DNA from: Thermoleophilia bacterium
Lineage (GTDB): Bacteria > Actinomycetota > Thermoleophilia > Gaiellales > Gaiellaceae
DNA: 64,000 bases
Assembly: GCA_025936995.1 (NCBI GenBank)
Contig: JAICSH010000006.1
Location: forward strand, 6,575-70,574
Direction: 5' to 3'
Positions within the stretch are counted from its first letter, which is position 1; every line of letters starts with the position of its first letter. Both the position numbers and the translations under genes were made by a program. Below the pieces are notes generated by a model. It was not told the DNA's origin. It saw only the letters and a list, made by a program, of their open reading frames with translations, and did no database searches. Shown piece after piece: positions 2 to 37,056 of the stretch.

Positions 2-382
2 GTCGCCGACGCCGACCTCGAGCCGCTCTTCCGCGAGAAGCCGGCCATCCACCGCTTCCCCGGCGCGATGGCCGAGCGCGTGCGCGAGCTCGCGGCCACC
101 GTCGCGGACGAGTACGGCGGCGACGCCTCCCGGTTGTGGACCGAGGCCGCGGACGGCGCAGACCTGCGGCGCCGCATCTCCGCGCTGCCGGGCTTCGGCG
201 AGATGAAGATCAAGTCGCTGGGCGCCGTGCTCGCCAAGCGGTTCGGCGTGGCGGCCGCCGCGGAGCTCGCTCCCGCCCACCCAACGCTCGGCGACGTCGA
301 CTCTCCCGCTGCGCTCGCCGGCTACCAGGCGGCGAAGAAGGCACACAAGGCCGAGTGGCTGGCGTCCAAGTCCGCACGCTGA
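2..382 (+). CDS. HhH-GPD-type base-excision DNA repair protein, C-terminal fragment (5' end outside the window)
   Basis: Frame 2 is open from the window edge through tracked ORF 68..382. The peptide ...ISALPGFGEMKIKSLGAVLAKRFGV... looks like a helix-hairpin-helix element. Codon usage is GC3-rich. Confidence 0.5.
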   Translation, partial: VADADLEPLFREKPAIHRFPGAMAERVRELAATVADEYGGDASRLWTEAADGADLRRRISALPGFGEMKIKSLGAVLAKRFGVAAAAELAPAHPTLGDVDSPAALAGYQAAKKAHKAEWLASKSAR

Positions 383-1386
383 CGGACGGCGGCCAGCCCG
401 CCGAGGAGACCGCGCACGCCCTCGCCGAGTTCTTCGCGGCGGCGAAGCAGACGCTCGAGATCGCCGTCTACGACCTCCAGCTGCCGGACGAGCTCGAGTC
501 GATCGTTCGCGGCGAGCTCGTCGCGGCGCAGAAGCGCGGGGTCGCCGTCCGCCTCGCGTACAACCTCGACCATCCGAAGGCCGTGCCGGTTCCGCCGCCG
601 CCGCGTACGAACACCGGGGCGTTGGAGGACCAGCCCTTCCCGACCGAGGCGATCCCGGGAGTCCCCGACCTGATGCACCACAAGTACGTCGTCCGCGACG
701 CGGCCTCCGTGTGGACCGGCTCGACGAACTGGACCGCCGACTCGTGGACGCGGGAGGAGAACGTCGTCGTCACCGTCGACTCGCCCGCGATCGCCGCGCG
801 CTACCGCGAGGACTTCGAGCAGCTCTGGACGACACGCGACGTCGCGCGCAGCGGCAAGGTCGACACGGCCCCGGTCGATGGGATGCGCGCATGGTTCTGC
901 CCCGGCCGCGGCGAGAAGCTCGCGCACCGGATCGCGAAGGCGATCGGCTCCGCCCGGCGCCGCATCCGGATCGCATCGCCGGTCATCACCTCGGCGCCGA
1001 TCCTCGGCACGCTTGCCCAGGTCGCCTCCGACGGAAAGGTCGACCTCGCCGGGGTAGTCGACGCCACCCAGATCGCCGAGGTGCTGCAGCAGTGGCGCGA
1101 GAACGGAAACGTCGACTGGAAGGGCCCGCTGCTCCGGACGGTGCTCACGCGCGCGCCCTTCTCCGGCAAGCAGACGACGCCGTGGGGGCCCGGCACGGTG
1201 CACGACTACATGCACGCCAAGGTCACCGTCGCGGACGACACGATCTTCGTCGGCAGCTTCAACCTCTCCCATTCGGGCGAGCTGAACGCCGAGAACGTCC
1301 TCGAGCTCGAGGATGCACGGCTCGCGGAGCAGCTCGCCGCGTTCGTCGACGGGATACGCGCGCGTTACCCCGCGGTCGCCCTTTAG
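355..1386 (+). CDS. Phospholipase D-like (two HKD motif) family protein
   Basis: Same frame as tracked ORF 136..1386. It has two HKD motifs (HHKYVVRD..GSTNWT and HAKVTVAD..GSFNLSHSG). The Arg-rich first part of the tracked ORF overlaps the upstream gene, so I moved the start to in-frame GTG 355 (uncertain). Confidence 0.8.
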   Translation: MAGVQVRTLTDGGQPAEETAHALAEFFAAAKQTLEIAVYDLQLPDELESIVRGELVAAQKRGVAVRLAYNLDHPKAVPVPPPPRTNTGALEDQPFPTEAIPGVPDLMHHKYVVRDAASVWTGSTNWTADSWTREENVVVTVDSPAIAARYREDFEQLWTTRDVARSGKVDTAPVDGMRAWFCPGRGEKLAHRIAKAIGSARRRIRIASPVITSAPILGTLAQVASDGKVDLAGVVDATQIAEVLQQWRENGNVDWKGPLLRTVLTRAPFSGKQTTPWGPGTVHDYMHAKVTVADDTIFVGSFNLSHSGELNAENVLELEDARLAEQLAAFVDGIRARYPAVAL

Positions 1387-1510: not shown

Positions 1511-1924
1511 ATGCGCAAGATTCAGACCGCGACGCGGACCACGAAGTTCGTTGTCGCAGCAGTAGTGGCGTCGATCGCCTTCGCGGGCGTCTACGGCTTC
1601 GCCGCGTCACTCGGCATCACGTCGTCGGGCCTTGGCGCCGGCAACGCGGTCGTCGCATCCTGCGGCACCGGCATCACCGCGTCGTACACGACCGCGTACA
1701 GCGCGACGATCCCGGGCTACTCCGTCAGCCAGGTGAACCTCGCCAGCATCCCGGCCGCCTGCCTGAGCAAGGCGTACAGGATCCAGCTGACCGGCACCGC
1801 CGGCGCGACCGTCGGGTCCGAGGTCTCCGGGACGTTGCCCGCCTCGGGCACCACTGCGAGCGTCGCAACCTCGGGGAACGTCGACGCAAGTCTCGTCACC
1901 GGCATCTCGGTCGTCGTCTCGTAG
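1511..1924 (+). CDS. Small secreted protein P1 with a SipW-cognate-like N-terminal motif (paralogue of P2)
   Basis: ATG 1511 lies 8 nt after AGAGGAG (1495-1502). The protein has an N-terminal hydrophobic signal segment, then the motif FAASLGITSSGLGAGNAVVASC. It is Thr/Ser/Gly-rich with two Cys. Confidence 0.75.
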   Translation: MRKIQTATRTTKFVVAAVVASIAFAGVYGFAASLGITSSGLGAGNAVVASCGTGITASYTTAYSATIPGYSVSQVNLASIPAACLSKAYRIQLTGTAGATVGSEVSGTLPASGTTASVATSGNVDASLVTGISVVVS

Positions 1925-1951
1925 CGACCCGTCTCCGTACCGGCGGACTGC

Positions 1952-1980
1952 GAGCGGGGCGCGCCTACAGCGTCCCGCTC
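1952..1980 (+). terminator. GC-rich hairpin between P1 and P2 (possible partial terminator or attenuator)
   Basis: GAGCGGG (1952-1958) pairs with CCCGCTC (1974-1980) around a 15-nt loop. It is followed by the T/C-rich run gttccgtctctc. There is no clean U-tract. Confidence 0.3.
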
Positions 1981-2003
1981 GTTCCGTCTCTCGGAGGTAA
2001 CGC

Positions 2004-2390
2004 GTGCAGCGGCTGGCCAACATCCTCGCGATCGTCGTCACGGCGGCTCTCCTGTCGGTCGGAGTCGCGTCGGCCGCCGGCCTCGGCTTCACCAGCGGGA
2101 AGCTCGGCGCCGGGAGCGCCGTGGTCGCCGGTTGCACGTCGTCGTCCCTGACCGCGACCCGCAACGTGGACAACAGCGGCAACGTCACGCAGCTCAGCGT
2201 GACCGGTGTCCCCCAGGCCTGCGCAGGCGAGACCCTCGCCGCGACGCTCGAGAACAGCTCGCATACGAGTCTCGGCAGTGCCTCGGCCGTCGTCGGATCC
2301 TGCACGGGCGGCTGCTCGATGACGCTCTCGGGGTTCGGGACCGTCTCCGCCGCCAACGTCACCGCCTACGCGCTCTCGCTCACGCAGTAA
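2004..2390 (+). CDS. Small secreted protein P2 with a SipW-cognate-like N-terminal motif (paralogue of P1)
   Basis: GTG 2004 lies 6 nt after GGAGG. Signal segment, then SAAGLGFTSGKLGAGSAVVAGC. It shares V-[ST]-Q...[IV]P-x-AC with P1. Confidence 0.75.
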   Translation: MQRLANILAIVVTAALLSVGVASAAGLGFTSGKLGAGSAVVAGCTSSSLTATRNVDNSGNVTQLSVTGVPQACAGETLAATLENSSHTSLGSASAVVGSCTGGCSMTLSGFGTVSAANVTAYALSLTQ

Positions 2391-2397
2391 GCCGACC

Positions 2398-3030
2398 ATG
2401 CGCCGCTTCCGTTCCACGCCGCTCCGTCTCGCCGCCGCGATCGCCATGGCGGCGTGCGTCTCGACCGGCGTCGCGTACGCCGCGAGCCTCGGCCTCAGCT
2501 CCGGCAAGCTCCACGCCTGGAGCCAGACGCTGACCAAGGGAACGTGCAGCCCGTCGACGCTGTTCGACACCTACGTCAGCCAGGCGACTCCCAACACGCC
2601 CATCGGCAACGCGCCGCCGACCCTTCTCGTGTCGGGCGCAGTGAACGCGCAGAACTACACGTTCGTCCGCTTCGACCTTTCCGGGTGCAACATCCCGGCG
2701 ACCGGGGGTGCAGACAACGCGACGCTCACGATCAACGTGACCGCCGCGGGGCACGACAAGATCTCGGTCTTTCCGGTCCTCTCGGCCTGGGACCCGGCGA
2801 CGCTGACGTGGAACGGTCTCGCGGGCGTCACGATCGGATCGACGGCCAGTGATACGCAACCGGTCAACAGCGCAAGAGTGTTCAGCTTCACCGTCACGGG
2901 CGACGTCGACGCAGCCATCAAGGCCGGCGCCCTCTGGGGCTGGGAGATCCGGGACACGAGCGGCACTGCGACGACCGTGATCTCGTCGACGACCAACCCA
3001 CCGTCTCTCTCCATCAACTATGAGAAGTAG
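2398..3030 (+). CDS. Secreted DNRLRE-domain protein P3 with the same N-terminal motif
   Basis: Signal segment, then YAASLGLSSGKLHAW..KGTC. DNRLRE-type signature DTYVSQ...YTFVRFDLSGC...VFPVLSAWDPATLTWN. Confidence 0.8.
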   Translation: MRRFRSTPLRLAAAIAMAACVSTGVAYAASLGLSSGKLHAWSQTLTKGTCSPSTLFDTYVSQATPNTPIGNAPPTLLVSGAVNAQNYTFVRFDLSGCNIPATGGADNATLTINVTAAGHDKISVFPVLSAWDPATLTWNGLAGVTIGSTASDTQPVNSARVFSFTVTGDVDAAIKAGALWGWEIRDTSGTATTVISSTTNPPSLSINYEK

Positions 3031-3586
3031 CGTCCTCCCTCTCGCGCCTCGCGTCGCCCTCCGGCCTCGGCTCCCCCACGCACGGAAGGTGGCGTTGATC
3101 GCGGCACAGCTCGCCTTCGTGGCGGCGCTGCTCTGGTTCTGCCTACCGCAGGGCTTCGGCGGCCGCGCCGACTGGGTGCTCGTGAGCGGGACGAGCATGC
3201 TGCCCCATCTCCACACCGGCGACGTCGTCCTTGTCGACCACCAGTCGGCCTACCACGTCGGGGAGGTCGTCGCGTACCGCGTGCCGAAGGGCCAGGTCGG
3301 CGCCGGATACGTCGTCATCCACCGGATCGTCGGCGGCAACGGCCGGACCGGCTGGACGCTGCAGGGCGACAACCGGACGGCGGCGGACCTCTGGCACCCC
3401 ACGGACCGAAACGTCCTCGGCGCCAAGCTGCTACGCATCCCGGACGCGTGGCTCGCCCTCCGCTTCCTCCACACGCCGCTCTTCCTCGGCCTGCTGGCCG
3501 GCTTCGGCATCTTCTTCTGGGTGGCCTTCAGCGGGGGCGGAGATTCGGACGACGCGGCCGGCGGGACACAGCAGGGACTGAGATGA
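3020..3586 (+). CDS. Signal peptidase I, ER/archaeal (S26B, SipW-like) type
   Basis: Motifs SGTSMLPHLHTGD, VVIHRIV (Ser/His type) and LQGDNR, with N- and C-terminal TM segments. The start overlaps P3 by 11 nt, and the stop overlaps the kinase ATG (ATGA at 3583-3586). Confidence 0.85.
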   Translation: MRSSVLPLAPRVALRPRLPHARKVALIAAQLAFVAALLWFCLPQGFGGRADWVLVSGTSMLPHLHTGDVVLVDHQSAYHVGEVVAYRVPKGQVGAGYVVIHRIVGGNGRTGWTLQGDNRTAADLWHPTDRNVLGAKLLRIPDAWLALRFLHTPLFLGLLAGFGIFFWVAFSGGGDSDDAAGGTQQGLR

Positions 3587-5055
3587 GCGCGATCGCCGAC
3601 GCATACCTCGCCGAGCGCACCGCCCTGCCTGCGCGGCTGCACGCGGCCGTTCTGCGGGTGACCCAGCGGCGGAAGGTCGTGGTCGGGGTCGGCATCACGA
3701 GCCTGCTCCTGACCTTCGTGGGGATGCTGACCACCGGCGGCTCCGGGACGATCGGCACGATCATGTACGTCCCGTGGGTGGCGCTCCTCGCGGCCGAGCT
3801 CGGGCCGGCGGCCGGCGTGCTCGTCGGAATCGCGGCGACCGGCCTCTACTTCGCCGCCGCGGAATCGGTCGGGCTCCCCCACGACCCGGTGACGCTGGTG
3901 CTGCGTCTCGCCCCGCTCGTGGGTGTCGGCGTCGCCGCCGGTCTGTCGTCGCGCCGCATCTCCTCGGACGCCCTGGAGCTCCAGAAGACGAGTGCGGCGC
4001 AGCAGGCGCTGCTCGACTCGACGCTGGACGGCATCTGCCTCACGGACGCCTCCGGTCGCATCCTGCTCGCGAATGCTCCGCTGCAACGGATCTCCGTGGA
4101 GCTCGGGATCCCGCCACACGGAACGGTGATCGAGCGGCTGCTCTCGCTCGCCGACCGGACGACCGAGCCAGCGCGCTTCCGCGACCGGATGCGCGAGCTC
4201 GCGCAGAATCCCGCGGCGAGCGAGGACGAGTTCGAGCTGACCGAGAGCGGCCGCGTGTTCCAGGGCTGCACCGCGCCGGTGCAACGACGCGACGGCACGC
4301 TCGTCGGCCGGATCTGGTCGCTGCGGGAGGTGACCTCCGACCGGCGGCTCGAGCGGCTGCGCGACGCGTTCGTCGCTGCCGTCTCGCACGAGCTGCGCAC
4401 GCCGCTCACCTCGGTCTCCGGCTTCCTCGAGCTGCTCGGCGACGAGGAGGACAACCTCAAGCTCTCTGGGCGCACGTACCTGACCGCCGCCCGTCGCGGC
4501 ACCACCCGCCTCCAGCGGATCGTCGAGGATCTCCTCCTCGTGGCGGAGATCGAGGCAGAGCGCCTCGAGCTCCGTACCGAGCCGGTCGACCTCAGGGAGC
4601 TCGCGGCCGCCGCGGTCGAGATTACCCGCGCCGCCGCCGACGAGAAGCACATCGCGCTCACTCTGGACGTCGAGGGATCGCTCCCGCTCGAGGCCGACGG
4701 CGCACGGCTCGGACAGGTGCTGGAAAACCTCCTGTCGAACGCGATCAAGTACACCCCCGCCGGCGGCGCGATCGTCCTTTCGGCGAGCGGCGGTGACGCA
4801 CACCGGCGGATCGAGGTCGCCGACAACGGCATCGGCGTCCCGCATGAAGAGCTCGGCCAGCTCTTCTCGCGCTTCTACCGGGCCTCGAACGCCACCCGTC
4901 GCGCGATTCCCGGCACCGGCCTCGGCCTCGTGATCGCCCGCGCGATCGTCGAGGGCCACGGCGGCACGATCTCTCTCGACAGCCGCGAGGGCGAGGGAAC
5001 GACCGTCACAGTGACGCTCCCGCTCTGTCAGCCCGACGGCGGCACGTACCTGTAG
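3583..5055 (+). CDS. Membrane-bound PAS sensor histidine kinase (HisKA/HATPase_c)
   Basis: H-box SHELRTPL, N-box LLSNAIKYT, G-boxes DNGIGV and GTGLGL. N-terminal hydrophobic segments and a PAS-like region are present. I chose ATG 3583 because the upstream part of tracked ORF 3448..5055 overlaps sipW and is Arg-rich. Confidence 0.85.
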   Translation: MSAIADAYLAERTALPARLHAAVLRVTQRRKVVVGVGITSLLLTFVGMLTTGGSGTIGTIMYVPWVALLAAELGPAAGVLVGIAATGLYFAAAESVGLPHDPVTLVLRLAPLVGVGVAAGLSSRRISSDALELQKTSAAQQALLDSTLDGICLTDASGRILLANAPLQRISVELGIPPHGTVIERLLSLADRTTEPARFRDRMRELAQNPAASEDEFELTESGRVFQGCTAPVQRRDGTLVGRIWSLREVTSDRRLERLRDAFVAAVSHELRTPLTSVSGFLELLGDEEDNLKLSGRTYLTAARRGTTRLQRIVEDLLLVAEIEAERLELRTEPVDLRELAAAAVEITRAAADEKHIALTLDVEGSLPLEADGARLGQVLENLLSNAIKYTPAGGAIVLSASGGDAHRRIEVADNGIGVPHEELGQLFSRFYRASNATRRAIPGTGLGLVIARAIVEGHGGTISLDSREGEGTTVTVTLPLCQPDGGTYL

Positions 5056-5726
5056 CCGAAGCCGCGGACCGTCTCGATCGGCTGCCAGTCGGCGGTCGCT
5101 TGGCCGAGCTTCTTCCGCAGGTACGAGACGTACAGCTTCACCTGGTCGCGGGAGACTCCAGCCTCATGTCCCCAGCAATGCTCGATCAGCTGCTCGGCCG
5201 AGAGAACCTGGCCCGGGTGACGCGTGAACGCATTGAGGAGCCGGAACTCGAGCGGCGTGAGGGTCACCGGTAGGCCGCGGCTCAGGACGAGCCGGCGCGC
5301 GTAGTCGATCGAGATCGCGCCGTCGTCGTAGTGCTCGAGGTGCTTGGGCTCGGGCGCGCGCCGGAGGAGCGCCTCGATCCGGGCGAGCAGCTCCTGCCGG
5401 CCGAACGGCTTCACGACGTAGTCGTCGGCGCCGGCGCGGAAGCCGCGAACCTTGTCGATCTCGCCGCTGCGCGCGGTGAGCAGGATCACCGGGACGTCGC
5501 TCAGGTCCCGGAGGCGCTCGAGCGTCTCGAAGCCGTCGAGCTCGGGCATCGACAGGTCGAGGACGACGAGGTCGGCCGGAGTCGCGTGGAAGGCCCGCAG
5601 CGCGGCGCGCCCGTCCTTGGCCGTCTCGACCCCGTATCCGGCGCTCCGTAGGAGCTCTGCGAGCAGCAGGCAGATGTCGTCGTTGTCATCGACGACCAGC
5701 ACCCGCCGCAAAGGTGCCGTCACCAC
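5028..5726 (-). CDS. OmpR/PhoB-family response regulator
   Basis: Receiver domain (VLVVDDNDD, DLVVLDLSMP, KPF) plus a winged-helix output domain (LTPLEFRLL, VRGFGYRY). It is convergent with the kinase, and the 3' ends overlap by 28 nt. Confidence 0.9.
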   Translation of the reverse strand: MVTAPLRRVLVVDDNDDICLLLAELLRSAGYGVETAKDGRAALRAFHATPADLVVLDLSMPELDGFETLERLRDLSDVPVILLTARSGEIDKVRGFRAGADDYVVKPFGRQELLARIEALLRRAPEPKHLEHYDDGAISIDYARRLVLSRGLPVTLTPLEFRLLNAFTRHPGQVLSAEQLIEHCWGHEAGVSRDQVKLYVSYLRKKLGQATADWQPIETVRGFGYRYVPPSG

Positions 5727-5756: not shown

Positions 5757-6713
5757 ATGATAGGTCGAATGAAGCGATTCATCTCCGTTTCGACGCTTAT
5801 TGCGACGCTCTCGGCGGCGCTCCTGACGGGCTCCTCCGCCCAGGCGCTGCGCCTTCCGGCCGCTCGGCACTGCCCCGTCTTCCCGGCGACCAACGCCTGG
5901 AATCAGCGCGTCGACAAGCTCCCGGTCGCCTCCGACTCAGCGCAGTTGATCGCCTCGATCGGGGTAAACGCGTCCGTGCACGCGGACTTCGGCTCGGGCA
6001 CCTGGGCCGGCAGCACGATCGGCATCCCCTTCGACGTCGTCTCGCGGAAGACGCACCGGTCTCGCGTCGGATTCGCCTACGCCGACGAGTCCGATCGCGT
6101 GCGCTATCCGATCCCGCGGCACGTCCATATCGAGGGGGGCCGGCATCCGAGCGGCGACCGGCACGCGCTCCTCGTCGACAAGTCCTCGTGCCGGCTCTAC
6201 GAGCTGTACGACCTCCGTCACACGCGGCACGGCTGGAGGGCCGGCTCGGGCGCCGTCTGGAACCTGCGCTCGAATCACCTCCGCCATGCGGGCTGGACCT
6301 CGGCGGACGCAGCCGGCCTGCCCATCTTCCCCGGCCTCGCCCGCTGGGACGAGGTCAAGCGCGGCGTGATCAACCATGCGCTCCGCTTCACCGCGCCCGA
6401 GACCCGCCGCGCGTACGTCTATCCCGCGCGTCACTACGCATCGAGCTCGAACGACCCCTCGCTGCCGCCGATGGGTCTGCGCGTGAGGTTGAAGGCGCGC
6501 GTGAACGTCGCCTCGTTCCCGCGGCAGGCGCGCGTCGTCCTCCGGGCCATGCAGCGCTACGGGATGATCCTCGCCGACAACGGCTTGCCCTGGTACGTCT
6601 CCGGCGCGCCGAACAAGCACTGGTCGAACGACGCCCTCCACTCGTTCGACCGGCTCACGGGAGCGGACTTCGAGGTCGTCGACACCGCCTCGCTCCCGGA
6701 ACCCGGCAAGTAG
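5757..6713 (+). CDS. Secreted conserved hypothetical protein
   Basis: N-terminal signal peptide (MKRFISVSTLIATLSAALLTGSSAQA) and coding-like GC3 bias. I do not recognise the family. Confidence 0.7.
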   Translation: MIGRMKRFISVSTLIATLSAALLTGSSAQALRLPAARHCPVFPATNAWNQRVDKLPVASDSAQLIASIGVNASVHADFGSGTWAGSTIGIPFDVVSRKTHRSRVGFAYADESDRVRYPIPRHVHIEGGRHPSGDRHALLVDKSSCRLYELYDLRHTRHGWRAGSGAVWNLRSNHLRHAGWTSADAAGLPIFPGLARWDEVKRGVINHALRFTAPETRRAYVYPARHYASSSNDPSLPPMGLRVRLKARVNVASFPRQARVVLRAMQRYGMILADNGLPWYVSGAPNKHWSNDALHSFDRLTGADFEVVDTASLPEPGK

Positions 6714-33468: not shown

Positions 33469-36216
33469 TCACCTCCGGCGGATGACGACCACGGCCAGGT
33501 CGTCGGAGAGGTCGCCCCCGGCGAAGTCGCGCGCATCCTCCGCGACCGCCTCGGCGAGTGTGCGCGCCGGCAGATCGCGCCGGTCGGCGAGCAGCGCGTC
33601 GAGCCGCTCCTCCCCGTAGAGCTCGCCGTCGCGCCGCGCCTCGATCACGCCGTCGGTGTAGAGGACGAGCGAGGCGCCGGGCGGCAGCTCGGTGCGCGCC
33701 TCCGCGTACTCCTGACCTCCGTCGATCCCGAGCACGAGGCCGTGCGCCTCGAGCGGGCGAGTCGACCCGTCGGACAGGACGATCCGCGGCGGGGGATGGC
33801 CGGCGCTCGCGCTCGCGACGCCGCCCCCGGCGCCGTCGACGACGACGTAGCTCATGCTGATGAACTTGCCCGGGCCGATCTCGCTGCAGATCACGTCGTT
33901 CGCGGAGGCGAGGAAGTCCGCCGGTTCCGAATGCTCGCGGGCGAGCGAGCGGAACACGAACTTCGCCATCGCCATGTCCGCCGTCGCGTCGACACCATGC
34001 CCGGTCACGTCCCCGAGCACCACCGCGAGGCGGCCGTCGTCGAGCGCGAGGAAGTCGTAGAGGTCCCCGCCGACCTCCACCCGCGCCGACGGTTCGTACA
34101 CCTCCCCCACCTCGAGGCCGGCGATCACCGGCCGGGAACGCGGGAGGAGCGAGCGCTGCATCGTGTCGGCGAACTGCTTCTGCTGCTGGTAGAGGCGCGC
34201 GTTGTCGATCGCGAGAGCCGCCTGCGCCGCGAGCGCCGCCGCCGCGTCGACCGTCTCCTCCGACAGCGGGTCCCCCGGCCGGAAGGAATAGACGCCGAGC
34301 GTGCCGATGACCTCCGTCGGCAGGGCCACGGGGACGATCGACGCCGTCCAGCCCTTCTCGAGGAAGGGCACGAGCGCGGGCAGGTAATGCCCGCCGCGGG
34401 AGCGGCCGGGCCTGAGCCGGAAGCTGCGCCGGTCCCGGAAGAGCCGCTGGACGTTGCGCTGGCCGAACGGCACAGGCAGGGTGAGGATCGTGCGGACCGC
34501 CGCTGCGAACGGCGCGTCCCGGACGTGGATCGCCTGCGGCACGAGCTGCTCGCGCCGTTCGTCCGGCATCCGTACCACGGCCGCGTCGACGTCGAGGACG
34601 TCGACGACGGTGCGTGCGAGCGCCGCGAGCGTCTCGTCGAGGGAAAGGCTCTGCGCGAAGGAACGGGAGACCTCGTACAGCGCGCGGAGCCGCCGTGCGG
34701 CCGCCCGCTCGGCGGCGAGGGCGGCCTCGCGCTCCTCGCCGAGCCGCGTCGCCTGCTCGTGGAGTTGCGCGTTCTGAACGGCGACCGCCAGCTGTCCGGC
34801 AAGCGCCGCCAGGAGCGCCGTCTCGTGCTCGCCTGGCTGCGGTCTGCCGGCGGGGAACGCGGCAAGCAGCCCGACCACCTCTCCGCGGGCGACGAGCGGA
34901 ACGGCGAGCGCCGAGCCGATACCGGTCTCCCGGGCGGCTGCCGCGGCCGCTGCGAGCCGCGGGTCGCGCACGATGTCCGCGACCTCGAGAACCGCGCGGT
35001 GTCGCGAAGGCCTCAACGCCACGTCGAGCAGCCTGTCCGCCACGCGCGCGTGCGGGCCCGCGAGGCCGCGGCTCGTCGCCTCTTCCAGCTCGCCCTCGCC
35101 GGCGCCGCGCAGGTAGACGGCCACCCGTTCCACCCCGAGGAGCTCGGCGACGCGTTCGACGGCGGTCTCGAGCGTGTGGGAGACGGAGAGCTCCGCGGTC
35201 GCCTGGGCGATCACCTCGAGCAGCGCCCGTGTCCGCTCGAGCTCGAGTGCGAGCAGCCGCGTGCGCTCGCCGGTGCGAAGCGCGTGCGCGGCGCGGACAC
35301 CGAATGTGGCAAGCCGCGTCAGCTGCTCCTCGTCCGGCTCCTCCCCGGGCGGATGGAACAGCTGGAGGACGCCAACCGGAGGCCTGCCGAGCGCCAGCGT
35401 GGTCGAGACGCCCCGATCCTCCACGAGCCCCGCGGATTGGGCGCGAACCGGCCCCGGCTCGGCGAGTGCGCGCTCGGCGGCCTCGCGCGCCGCGTCGAGA
35501 TCGTCTCCCTCGTCGACGCACCACGAGGCGCCGGGAACAAGGCCCTCCTCGCGGCTCTCCCAGAGGACGGCCGCGGACGCGCCGGCGACGCCGGCGGCGA
35601 GCCGGACGATCTCCGGCGCAGCGTCCTGCTCGTGCAACGCGCCCGCGAGCGCTTCTCCTGCGAGCTCGAGTGCCGGCCGCGCGAGGGAGGCGGCGCCCTC
35701 GCCGGCGGCGAAGCCGCGTAGGACGATCGCCGCGAGGGCGGCGCACAGCTCGGCAGCGAGCCGATGCTCGGCGCCGAACGGCTCTCCCGCGCGGAACAGC
35801 TCGAGCGAGACCGCGCAGCCGTTCGCGCGTGCCGGTACGAGGAGCAGCTGCTCGGCGCCGACGCGTTCCGCGATGCGACGGACCGCGGCCGGAGCCGTCG
35901 CAAGACCGTCGAGCGGCGTATCGGGAAGCTCCGTGGCCGGCAGCACCGTTCCTTCGAGCTCGGCGGAGACCGTCTGCATCGCCGCGACCGCCACCGCCTC
36001 GAGCCGTTCGCCGCCCTCGTCGAGCGCGCGGAGGAGCGCGACGTCGGCTCCCGAGACGGCCCGCGCCGCGTCCGCCAGCGCGCGAAGCGCGTCCGCCGCG
36101 GTCGTGGCGACCGCCGCAGCTGCCGCCGCGTGCACGAGCGCAGCGAGTGACGGGGCCGAAACGCGAACGTCGTTCGAGTCTTCAGCCGAGGAGTCCAGAT
36201 CGAGCAGGCTGCTCAT
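33469..36216 (-). CDS. Multi-GAF domain PP2C-type (SpoIIE) serine phosphatase
   Basis: The C-terminal PP2C/SpoIIE motifs are GGDLYDF, GDVTGHG and YTDGVIEA. The upstream approximately 650 aa have repeated GAF-like segments. The start is set at ATG 36216, because the longer tracked ORF (to 37551) overlaps two other genes. Confidence 0.85.
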   Translation of the reverse strand: MSSLLDLDSSAEDSNDVRVSAPSLAALVHAAAAAAVATTAADALRALADAARAVSGADVALLRALDEGGERLEAVAVAAMQTVSAELEGTVLPATELPDTPLDGLATAPAAVRRIAERVGAEQLLLVPARANGCAVSLELFRAGEPFGAEHRLAAELCAALAAIVLRGFAAGEGAASLARPALELAGEALAGALHEQDAAPEIVRLAAGVAGASAAVLWESREEGLVPGASWCVDEGDDLDAAREAAERALAEPGPVRAQSAGLVEDRGVSTTLALGRPPVGVLQLFHPPGEEPDEEQLTRLATFGVRAAHALRTGERTRLLALELERTRALLEVIAQATAELSVSHTLETAVERVAELLGVERVAVYLRGAGEGELEEATSRGLAGPHARVADRLLDVALRPSRHRAVLEVADIVRDPRLAAAAAAARETGIGSALAVPLVARGEVVGLLAAFPAGRPQPGEHETALLAALAGQLAVAVQNAQLHEQATRLGEEREAALAAERAAARRLRALYEVSRSFAQSLSLDETLAALARTVVDVLDVDAAVVRMPDERREQLVPQAIHVRDAPFAAAVRTILTLPVPFGQRNVQRLFRDRRSFRLRPGRSRGGHYLPALVPFLEKGWTASIVPVALPTEVIGTLGVYSFRPGDPLSEETVDAAAALAAQAALAIDNARLYQQQKQFADTMQRSLLPRSRPVIAGLEVGEVYEPSARVEVGGDLYDFLALDDGRLAVVLGDVTGHGVDATADMAMAKFVFRSLAREHSEPADFLASANDVICSEIGPGKFISMSYVVVDGAGGGVASASAGHPPPRIVLSDGSTRPLEAHGLVLGIDGGQEYAEARTELPPGASLVLYTDGVIEARRDGELYGEERLDALLADRRDLPARTLAEAVAEDARDFAGGDLSDDLAVVVIRRR

Positions 36217-36259
36217 CCCCGAAAGTATTCCGGGCGGGTCCCGCCGGCGACGAGCGGCT

Positions 36260-36502
36260 TCAGGCGACGATGCGATTCGCGCGCGGCAAGCGGCTCTCCC
36301 AGATCGTGCCGGCGCACATGGGGCACTGCGGCAGCTCGCGCTGCACGACGGCCCCGTAGCCGCAATCGGCGCACCGGAACTCGCCCGAGACGCGCGTGCC
36401 TGCGAGGACGAAGTCGGCGAAACCGGTGTCGTCCAGCTCCACCGCCGTCGGAGAACCGGACCCTTGTGTGGACTCCTCGACCTGAACCCCCACCTGCGCC
36501 AC
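36260..36502 (-). CDS. Small zinc-ribbon protein (CxxC...CxxC)
   Basis: FRCADCGYGAVVQRELPQCPMCAG. The gene lies 43 nt upstream of the phosphatase gene. Confidence 0.55.
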   Translation of the reverse strand: MAQVGVQVEESTQGSGSPTAVELDDTGFADFVLAGTRVSGEFRCADCGYGAVVQRELPQCPMCAGTIWESRLPRANRIVA

Positions 36503-36558
36503 CGCCTCTTCGTCCTCGGATAGACGCGCCCAGAGCGCGCCCGGTGCAATTTTTTGCC

Positions 36559-36564
36559 CATACT
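36559..36564 (+). promoter_or_regulatory. -10-like hexamer CATACT, 6 nt upstream of GTG 36571 (putative leaderless promoter)
   Basis: It is preceded by the T-run AATTTTTTG and lies in a divergent intergenic region. Confidence 0.3.
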
Positions 36565-36570
36565 GCGCCT

Positions 36571-37056
36571 GTGCAAACTCCCGAGCCAGCCCGTCCGTTC
36601 CGGATCCGGCCGGAGCGGCGCCAGCCGCGGCCGGAGCGCGCCACGCCGCTCGTGGGCAGCTGGGGAGTGCGGATCGCGTGGGTCTCGGGGCTCGTCCTCG
36701 CGGTCTCCTCGTTCACGGACTGGTACGCGGGGACGCTGCAGAACGGGTTGACCCTGTCGGTGACCGGCTGGCACTCCGGTGCGCTGGGCAAGCTCGTGTT
36801 CTTCGTCGGGCTCGCGACCCTGATCCTCGAGGCCGCCAGGGAAGCCGGGATCCTGCTGCCCGCCGCCGTGCCGGACCGGCTGCTGCTGATCGCGCTGGGC
36901 TCTCTCGCCGTGATCTTCGTCCTCATCCGGCTGATCTCCGTGCCGGACGTGTACTTCGTCTCGACCGCACGCGGGATCGGCCTCTACGTCAGCCTCCTCG
37001 CGGCGCTCGGGCTCCTGGGCGCGGGCCTTCTGCGGACGGCGGAAGACCTCCCCTAG
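36571..37056 (+). CDS. Hypothetical integral membrane protein
   Basis: Four hydrophobic segments follow a basic N-terminus. The start is uncertain (the tracked ORF begins at 36466). Confidence 0.55.
   Translation: MQTPEPARPFRIRPERRQPRPERATPLVGSWGVRIAWVSGLVLAVSSFTDWYAGTLQNGLTLSVTGWHSGALGKLVFFVGLATLILEAAREAGILLPAAVPDRLLLIALGSLAVIFVLIRLISVPDVYFVSTARGIGLYVSLLAALGLLGAGLLRTAEDLP

Follow-up and report, generated by a model that had tools for sequence, protein, structure and literature searches.

The stretch of Thermoleophilia DNA analysed here (contig JAICSH010000006.1, positions 6,575 to 70,574; 64,000 nucleotides (nt) in full, hereafter the window) carries on its forward strand, between positions 1511 and 3586, a cluster of four genes, three of which encode small secreted proteins with a common N-terminal motif and the fourth a signal peptidase. 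P1 (1511-1924; 137 amino acids (aa)), the putative major subunit of a surface fibre, starts with the ATG at 1511, and its ribosome-binding site, AGAGGAG, lies 8 nt 5’ of this codon. It is followed by P2 (2004-2390; 128 aa), its paralogue and putative minor subunit, by P3 (2398-3030; 210 aa), a putative tip adhesin, nucleator or anchor, and by a signal peptidase I of the S26B (endoplasmic reticulum (ER)/archaeal) type (3020-3586; 188 aa). A 79-nt spacer holding a strong stem-loop separates P1 from P2, P2 and P3 lie 7 nt apart, and P3 and the peptidase gene overlap by 11 nt. An earlier note on this DNA had described these four open reading frames (ORFs) and the 11-nt overlap, and all of them are present as described. 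Here we show that these genes form a genuine functional unit that is conserved widely, and we discuss whether its products may build a fibre comparable to those known from Bacillus and from archaea.

What ties P1, P2 and P3 together is the way they begin. Each opens with a basic n-region and a hydrophobic h-region, followed by a small-x-small site of the form (A/G)-x-A, and cleavage is predicted between G29-F30-A31 and A32-S33-L34 in P1 (signal peptide aa 1-31), between A22-S23-A24 and A25-G26-L27 in P2, and between A26-Y27-A28 and A29-S30-L31 in P3. The mature N-terminus common to the three reads A-(S/G)-L-G-x-(T/S)-S-x-x-L, and in P1 and P2 it continues as G-A-G-x-x-x-V-x-S-C. An extended motif fits 127 of the 150 best representatives of the family to which P1 and P2 belong; among these 127, the residue at -1 is Ala in 125 and that at -3 is Ala or Gly in 126, while the cleavage-site positions P1’ to P3’ read A-(S/T)-L in 98. 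The motif that the earlier note quoted from all three proteins is present as quoted. Its placement in the signal peptide or early mature region was right as far as the early mature N-terminus is concerned, and has to be corrected for the rest: since the conserved residues sit mostly behind the predicted (A/G)-x-A cleavage site, they form a mature N-terminus and not a part of the signal peptide. Judged from sequence, the signal peptides of P1-P3 resemble ordinary Sec/signal peptidase I (SPase I) signals, and what is out of the ordinary is that the first 12-20 mature residues are conserved; both the cleavage position and cognate processing by the peptidase of the cluster are predictions. Within the window, a hidden Markov model (HMM) of the family matches P1 (E 5e-44), P2 (4.5e-22) and P3 (5e-4), and no other ORF. 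The ORF at 36151-37056, which was matched by a loose regular expression for the motif, is unrelated and was treated as a chance match.

P1 and P2 are paralogues with conserved cysteines, as had been proposed: BLASTP aligns them with 37% identity over 73 aa (E 4e-8), and the family HMM and the alignment columns C51 and C84 agree with this. Mature P1 measures about 106 aa and has Cys51 and Cys84, and P2 carries two extra Cys. At E <= 0.001 P1 has 762 relatives, and the 120 matches listed are 80-99% identical to it and stem mostly from soil metagenomes, one being labelled Gaiellaceae. Judged by its closest relatives, the organism is Gaiellaceae-like. An exhaustive search of 50%-identity representatives (E <= 0.001) yielded 651 clusters. 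A further database search with a mixed alignment gave back the close Gaiellaceae homologues and nothing more, and the useful diversity came from a search with distant members alone. The proteins of the family measure about 130 aa, with a median Cys spacing of 34 residues and exactly two Cys in 112 of the 127 motif-fitting representatives. Ala, Ser, Gly, Thr and Val abound in their mature parts, which contain very few charged residues. Seven columns of the family alignment are invariant or nearly so (A31, A32, L34, V48, C51, C84 and A126); A31, A32 and L34 mark the cleavage site and the strand at the N-terminus, and C51 and C84 are the two Cys. The named relatives are labelled Acidimicrobiia, Acidimicrobiales, Ilumatobacteraceae, Nocardioides conyzicola and Candidatus Dormibacteraeota, nearly all as “hypothetical protein”. 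Neither P1-P3, nor their first 50 residues, nor 58 diverse family members gave a consistent match to Pfam or NCBIfam (E up to 1-10), and the family profile found only spurious matches to RSV-F among all PDB sequences. An hhalign comparison of the family with a hand-entered sequence of Bacillus subtilis TasA showed no relation (probability 0.6%).

P3 has its N-terminal ~40 residues alone in common with P1 and P2 (a BLASTP segment, besides the HMM match at E 5e-4) and contains no P1-type domain. Instead, residues 57-204 form the DNRLRE-type domain that the earlier note had recognised, now placed in DNRLRE/CBM96 by scores above the cutoffs of two models (NF033679, 59.7 bits against a cutoff of 34, E 3.4e-16; PF24517, 44.8 bits against 26, E 1.6e-11). 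P3 thus has the same domain as other DNRLRE/CBM96 proteins, and differs from them in that the domain is joined to the cluster-specific N-terminal motif and the gene adjoins a dedicated peptidase. In related clusters the gene directly 5’ of the peptidase usually encodes a protein that starts with the motif and continues into an unrelated domain of about 200 aa. This domain varies, being CBM96 in some clusters and some other, unidentified domain elsewhere. A varying domain behind a constant motif is what one would expect if the protein were an exchangeable tip or adhesin.

The peptidase passes the model for archaeal-type signal peptidase I marginally (TIGR02228, 54.7 bits against a cutoff of 51.85), and stays below the cutoffs of the bacterial LepB-type model (28 bits against 47) and of the SipW equivalog (NF046067, 20.2 bits against 190). 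Human SEC11A and SEC11C are its best relatives by sequence in the PDB. Its catalytic motifs, which replace LepB’s Ser-Lys dyad, are Ser59 (GTSM), His101-Arg102 (VIHRIV) and Asp117 (GDN), of which the Ser and GDN motifs align with SEC11A, while the HR motif is offset there by 2 residues and was matched by eye. The Ser, His and Asp motifs are invariant in eight cluster-linked homologues, and hydrophobic segments at aa 24-42 and 151-170, as read from the protein, flank the catalytic domain. The pass on TIGR02228, the kinship with SEC11A and SEC11C and the motifs, taken together with the low NF046067 score, therefore place the enzyme in the S26B SipW/Sec11 class, though not as a SipW orthologue. 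The assignment to this class rather than to that of LepB, made before any search, is thereby upheld, and the comparison with SipW stands at the level of class and fails at that of orthology. Some cluster-linked peptidases are larger. In Nocardioides conyzicola (L034:7439-9358) the peptidase domain is fused to a Cys-containing C-terminal repeat region of ~450 aa with a CBM_2 match, and homologues of 242 aa (contig L038) and 303 aa (contig L037) end in an acidic or low-complexity tail.

The earlier note had left open whether the cluster is conserved as a unit, and whether P1-like genes occur together with S26B peptidases. Both hold, far beyond the close relatives of this genome. Our reference set comprised 28 species-level genomes of Gaiellaceae and related Thermoleophilia metagenome-assembled genomes, obtained with a narrow search alignment that reached Gaiellaceae only. 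All 26 reference loci long enough to show it (26/26) have the order PLD-P1-P2-P3-peptidase-kinase, and the convergent regulator gene was detected in 24/26, with P1 identity going down to 43%. Outside the Gaiellaceae-type loci the core recurs unaccompanied by the PLD gene and by the two-component genes. One contig from Dormibacterota (L035) encodes a P1-like protein (130 aa), a P2-like protein (111 aa), a motif protein with CBM96 (238 aa) and the peptidase (174 aa), and a further genome (L040) has two P1-like genes, a motif protein with CBM96 and the peptidase. An Acidimicrobiia contig (L038) and contig L037 each carry a P1-like gene, a motif protein of 225-244 aa with an unidentified domain, and the peptidase; these larger proteins start with A-(A/S)-(L/V)-G-G-x-T-S-x-x-L. 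Behind the P1-like gene of Nocardioides conyzicola comes one for a protein of 639 aa, of which the N-terminus is the peptidase domain and the C-terminus the repeat region mentioned above. A metagenome contig (L039:3869-9460) holds seven P1-family paralogues, five of them in tandem, next to a motif-bearing 220-aa protein and two separate S26B peptidases. The tandem paralogues have near-identical signal peptides and divergent mature domains, which suggests subunit diversification or variation. Furthermore, when metagenome contigs were scanned with a sub-alignment of the Acidimicrobiia type, 80 loci were obtained, 29 of them distinct and with at least 2.5 kb of downstream sequence, and in 28 of these 29 an S26B peptidase gene lies within 3.5 kb on the same strand. 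Here too the gene just 5’ of the peptidase usually starts with the motif. A region of ~240 aa that seemed fused to the peptidase in some metagenome loci was rejected as stop-free out-of-frame read-through in high-GC DNA.

Four of the contigs deserve a separate remark. On L001 and L002 (ENA ERZ25039583 / ERZ25039464) the genes for PLD, P3 and the kinase are broken up or joined across frames, an example being a 647-aa gene call annotated “Peptidase_S24+HisKA+HATPase”. L003 and L004 encode an identical P1 protein and have the PLD, P3 and kinase genes intact. The gene splits on L001 and L002 are probably assembly indel errors rather than biology.

In the window the core is flanked by the genes that characterise the Gaiellaceae version. 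Directly 5’ of P1 is a PLD-like gene with two PLDc_2/HKD domains (340-1386, forward strand), which adjoins P1 in every Gaiellaceae locus and is not found in the clusters of other lineages. At the other end, a histidine kinase gene with PAS, HisKA and HATPase_c domains (3583-5055, forward strand) has its start overlapping the stop codon of the peptidase gene by 4 nt (ATGA), and an OmpR-family response regulator is encoded convergently with it on the reverse strand (5028-5726). The kinase and the regulator are linked to the cluster in Gaiellaceae only. Because the junctions from P2 through P3 and the peptidase to the kinase are this tight, these four genes are almost certainly co-translated from one mRNA. 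Just past the response regulator lies an ORF of 318 aa (5757-6713, forward strand) with a signal-peptide-like N-terminus and no Pfam match, and related Gaiellaceae contigs have a gene of 312-314 aa at the equivalent position. This ORF may belong to the same regulon as the cluster.

Several elements around P1 are conserved at the level of DNA or RNA. Upstream of it the forward strand carries the direct repeats CATAC (1400-1404), CATAC (1411-1415) and CATAA (1434-1438), which together span 1400-1438 and are spaced by about one and two helical turns, CATAA coming 23 bp further along. These columns do not vary among the 21 Gaiellaceae upstream regions aligned, and CATAC-N6-CATAC occurs once in the window against 0.21 occurrences expected by chance. 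The array looks like a candidate binding site for the adjacent OmpR-family regulator. Moreover, the P1 ORF is bracketed by a perfect 9-nt inverted repeat, of which the 5’ arm, GCCGGTACG, lies at 1478-1486 in the 5’ untranslated region (UTR) of P1 and the 3’ arm, CGTACCGGC, at 1936-1944, 12 nt past the P1 stop codon, both on the forward strand. The arms are near-invariant across Gaiellaceae loci, and in one of these (L029) both carry changes that match each other (G>C and C>G). The repeat could serve in 5’-3’ pairing of a monocistronic P1 mRNA, or could provide two sites for one DNA-binding protein. The hairpin noticed earlier between P1 and P2 is real: it is a GC-rich stem-loop on the forward strand (1951-1981; -48.8 kcal/mol, z = -3.7) that lacks a U-tract, its 9-bp G+C-rich core is kept in 26/26 aligned loci, and 4 of its pairs show compensatory double changes. 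It is probably a partial terminator or a 3’ stabiliser that would raise the ratio of P1 to P2 and P3, which is what a major subunit would call for. A further hairpin considered in the 5’ UTR (1453-1460 / 1492-1499) found no covariation support in the upstream alignment and was dropped.

What could be the shape of such a subunit? An AlphaFold2 model of P1, built on an alignment of 136 sequences, is of moderate confidence, with a mean predicted local distance difference test score (pLDDT) of 70 and a predicted template modelling score (pTM) of 0.52. It comprises a signal-peptide helix, an unpacked stretch at residues 28-44 with pLDDT < 50, and a seven-strand beta-sandwich of ~90 aa (residues 46-136) with pLDDT ~80-86. 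The mature N-terminus is accordingly modelled as the exposed segment that the earlier note had asked for. Such a free segment is compatible with a donor strand, of which it is no proof.

Based on these findings, we consider the chances slightly better than even that the locus encodes a fibre system with a dedicated peptidase, in which the subunits would have the roles proposed for them here. Gene content, the shared motif, the class of the peptidase and conservation and co-occurrence across phyla were observed directly; polymerisation, subunit roles and regulation are inferred. In such a system, P1, P2 and P3 would be exported by Sec, and the membrane-bound S26B peptidase would cut each of them after (A/G)-x-A, exposing the common new N-terminus A-S-L-G-x-T-S-x-x-L. 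This segment of ~12-15 residues would then act as a donor beta-strand, inserting into the disulfide-stapled beta-sandwich of a neighbouring P1 or P2, and the outcome would be a chaperone-free extracellular polymer, either a fimbria or a matrix fibre, as in TasA/TapA/SipW and TafA/TafE/TafC/TafD. P1 would be the bulk subunit, its gene coming first and the stem-loop behind it being expected to lower read-through, and P2 a minor or adapter subunit. P3, which has the strand and no acceptor domain, would cap or nucleate one end of the fibre, and its CBM96/DNRLRE domain would bind a glycan, be it on a substrate or in the cell’s own envelope or extracellular polymeric substances. The cluster peptidase may in addition double as an anchor or assembly platform. 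In Gaiellaceae, the kinase and the OmpR-type regulator would probably control the P1 promoter via the CATAC repeats.

We must however take into account a number of observations that weigh against this reading. The earlier note had pointed to the models for SipW-cognate and alternate signal peptides and for TasA-like proteins, and searches with TIGR04088, TIGR04089, TasA/camelysin (Peptidase_M73) and DUF1102 returned no match for P1-P3 or for the 58 family members. A TasA-like fold was not recovered either, as a Foldseek search of the P1 model against the PDB gave nothing at E < 0.001, and the best matches were generic FN3 scaffolds (E 0.087-0.9, TM 0.2-0.37). No TasA, AbpA, thread or pilin structure stands among the 50 Foldseek matches listed, and a search against viral structures, in itself uninformative, gave nothing significant. 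With weak matches to FN3 alone, the P1 model is therefore best described as a small generic beta-sandwich, and not as a recognisable TasA jelly roll. Furthermore, the modelled sandwich looks complete with its seven strands and has no obvious empty groove. The signals of P1-P3 look like ordinary Sec/SPase I substrates and their P2’ residue is not aromatic, which leaves the need for a dedicated peptidase unaccounted for. The cluster contains no anchor protein, no sortase and no DUF5305 accessory. Lastly, the peptidase is missing near some family members: an Acidimicrobiaceae locus (L036) has P1-like and motif-bearing proteins and no peptidase within 7 kb, and in the remaining one of the 29 informative metagenome loci (L097) none is nearby.

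In the main rival reading P1-P3 would be cognate substrates of the peptidase that do not polymerise, in other words monomeric surface or wall coat proteins, or adhesins, whose N-terminus serves only as a recognition or sorting element, comparable to that of systems with a dedicated sorting enzyme. This would account for the co-occurrence of motif and peptidase equally well, and it sits easily with a modelled P1 domain that is a complete small beta-sandwich and with the lack of homology to any known fibre subunit. We nevertheless think it rather unlikely, given that 10-12 mature residues are conserved across phyla and in front of unrelated C-terminal domains. Signal peptidases I normally need little P’-side specificity, and because of this a conserved mature N-terminus is hard to explain by cleavage alone. 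Seven subunit paralogues in one cluster, five of them in tandem, are moreover typical of structural subunits, and the layout of a major gene, a hairpin, a minor paralogue and a lectin-domain protein mirrors that of known fibre operons (PMC11821415). If the proteins do polymerise, the bonds between them might instead be covalent, formed by intermolecular disulfides between the two conserved Cys or by isopeptide bonds as in Clostridium perfringens BsaA. The two Cys are indeed invariant or nearly so across the family, and BsaA/SipW offers the precedent of a SipW-linked covalent matrix polymer (PMC7395162, PMC11580942). On the other hand, the spacing of the Cys (median 34) and their position beside modelled strands fit an intramolecular staple, the retention of the N-terminal motif in P3-type proteins would be left unexplained, and an isopeptide signature of Lys/Asn/Asp was neither looked for nor seen, so that we regard a covalent polymer as improbable.

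Very little speaks for the peptidase being a housekeeping or unrelated paralogue that adjoins the cluster by accident, since the adjacency holds across classes and phyla. The same small weight falls to a role as leader peptidase for peptides made on the ribosome and altered after translation (RiPPs). S26B peptidases can act in RiPP maturation, as was recently shown for some SipW homologues (PMC13381572), but the neighbourhoods examined contain neither a RiPP recognition element (RRE) nor RiPP-modifying genes, and the substrates here are proteins of 128-244 aa with classical signal peptides. Least credible of all is a pilus of known type, whether type IV/Tad, sortase-dependent or chaperone-usher. 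An operon of small secreted subunits with a high content of Ala, Ser, Gly, Thr and Val would suit it; however, class III (prepilin) signals are missing along with a prepilin peptidase, the C-termini lack LPXTG (that of P1 reads GISVVVS) and no sortase accompanies them, and neither the cluster in the window nor the related loci contain an usher or a chaperone. Gene content thus led us to reject a RiPP leader peptidase as well as type IV/Tad, sortase-dependent and chaperone-usher pili.

Returning to the fibre system with a dedicated peptidase, a bolder version of it would have chaperone-free donor-strand fimbriae widespread among soil Actinomycetota and Dormibacterota, made of unusually small (~105 aa) disulfide-stapled immunoglobulin-like subunits that match TasA, Tafi or any known pilin neither in sequence nor in fold as far as can be detected, with their own Sec11-like peptidase and exchangeable glycan-binding tips, and so far unrecognised as a class. 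We put this forward tentatively, with somewhat less than even confidence. Were it true, bacteria would have in this module a counterpart to the archaeal Tafi and to thread-type filaments, and the abundant, barely cultured Gaiellales might have in it their main adhesin. Gaiellales and Acidimicrobiia are among the most abundant and least studied soil bacteria, and to our knowledge there is no information on their attachment or matrix formation. If fibres form, the rule that a dedicated Sec11-type peptidase goes with a donor-strand fibre would extend from Bacillota and Archaea to Actinomycetota, with a new minimal subunit fold, and the signature of (A/G)-x-A followed, across the cut, by A-(S/T)-L-G-x-T-S-x-x-L beside an S26B peptidase would annotate hundreds of clusters. 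Materials work would, moreover, gain a protein module that is very small, carries little charge and assembles by itself. As Nocardioides conyzicola is a cultured carrier of the genes, the idea is directly testable.

How does the module compare to the fibre systems already described? Our literature searches found no published description of it in Actinomycetota. The earlier remark that the system had not been functionally described agrees with this for Actinomycetota, and needs to be qualified, as fibre loci with dedicated peptidases are known elsewhere (Tafi, PMC11821415; AbpX). In Bacillus, the biofilm fibres of TasA/TapA/SipW assemble by donor-strand exchange (PMC9674648, PMC10151520), cleavage freeing the N-terminal strand that drives assembly. 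Like this system, the present cluster is an operon with an ER-type peptidase, a major protein, and an accessory protein that shares its N-terminal element. The peptidase gene, however, stands last, in reverse of the Bacillus order, neither sequence nor fold links the subunits to TasA/camelysin, and the peptidase is not a SipW orthologue. Moreover, an aromatic P2’ residue makes TasA resistant to LepB (PMC10269814), whereas P2’ here is Ser or Thr. The genes for AbpX, AbpA, TafE and TasA often adjoin a TIGR02228 peptidase and minor or tip subunits (bioRxiv 10.64898/2026.01.04.697558), and the AbpX/AbpA loci share with ours a grammar of fibre subunit, minor subunits, variable tip protein and dedicated signal peptidase I (PMC9245690). 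They differ in that their subunits have a jelly-roll core, often with calcium-mediated complementation, that the AbpX-linked peptidases have ten transmembrane (TM) helices, and that the bacterial loci often include SLH or LPXTG anchors and sortases, none of which are seen here.

The nearest functional precedent is the Tat-fimbriae (Tafi) and their Sec-dependent relatives. In Haloarcula hispanica, the cluster-encoded S26 peptidase TafD is required for the processing of TafA, the fibre contains roughly 100 TafA (major subunit) to 3-5 TafE (minor) to 1 TafC (tip), all Tafi subunits have a conserved N-terminal region, and TafC carries a lectin-type domain (LamG); Sec-dependent taf-like clusters occur in Thermococcus/Thermococcales and Archaeoglobus (PMC11821415). 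Several differences set the two apart. The hosts here are bacteria (Actinomycetota, Dormibacterota), the mature subunits measure ~106 aa against ~150-190 aa and have no similarity to DUF1102 or TafA, and the tip domain is CBM96/DNRLRE rather than LamG. TafD is built of two domains with four TM helices, against one domain and two hydrophobic segments in the peptidase of the window, and Pfam searches and neighbour gene lists gave neither a DUF5305 (TafG) accessory nor a TafF-like anchor for our cluster. What both have in common is a dedicated peptidase of the Sec11/SipW class within the cluster, a transcriptional regulator nearby, and a major subunit accompanied by a minor paralogue of similar size and by a larger protein that joins the shared N-terminus to a carbohydrate-binding-type domain. 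As such, the best reading, made by analogy, is that the module would be an analogue of the TasA/SipW and archaeal Tafi systems rather than a member of either.

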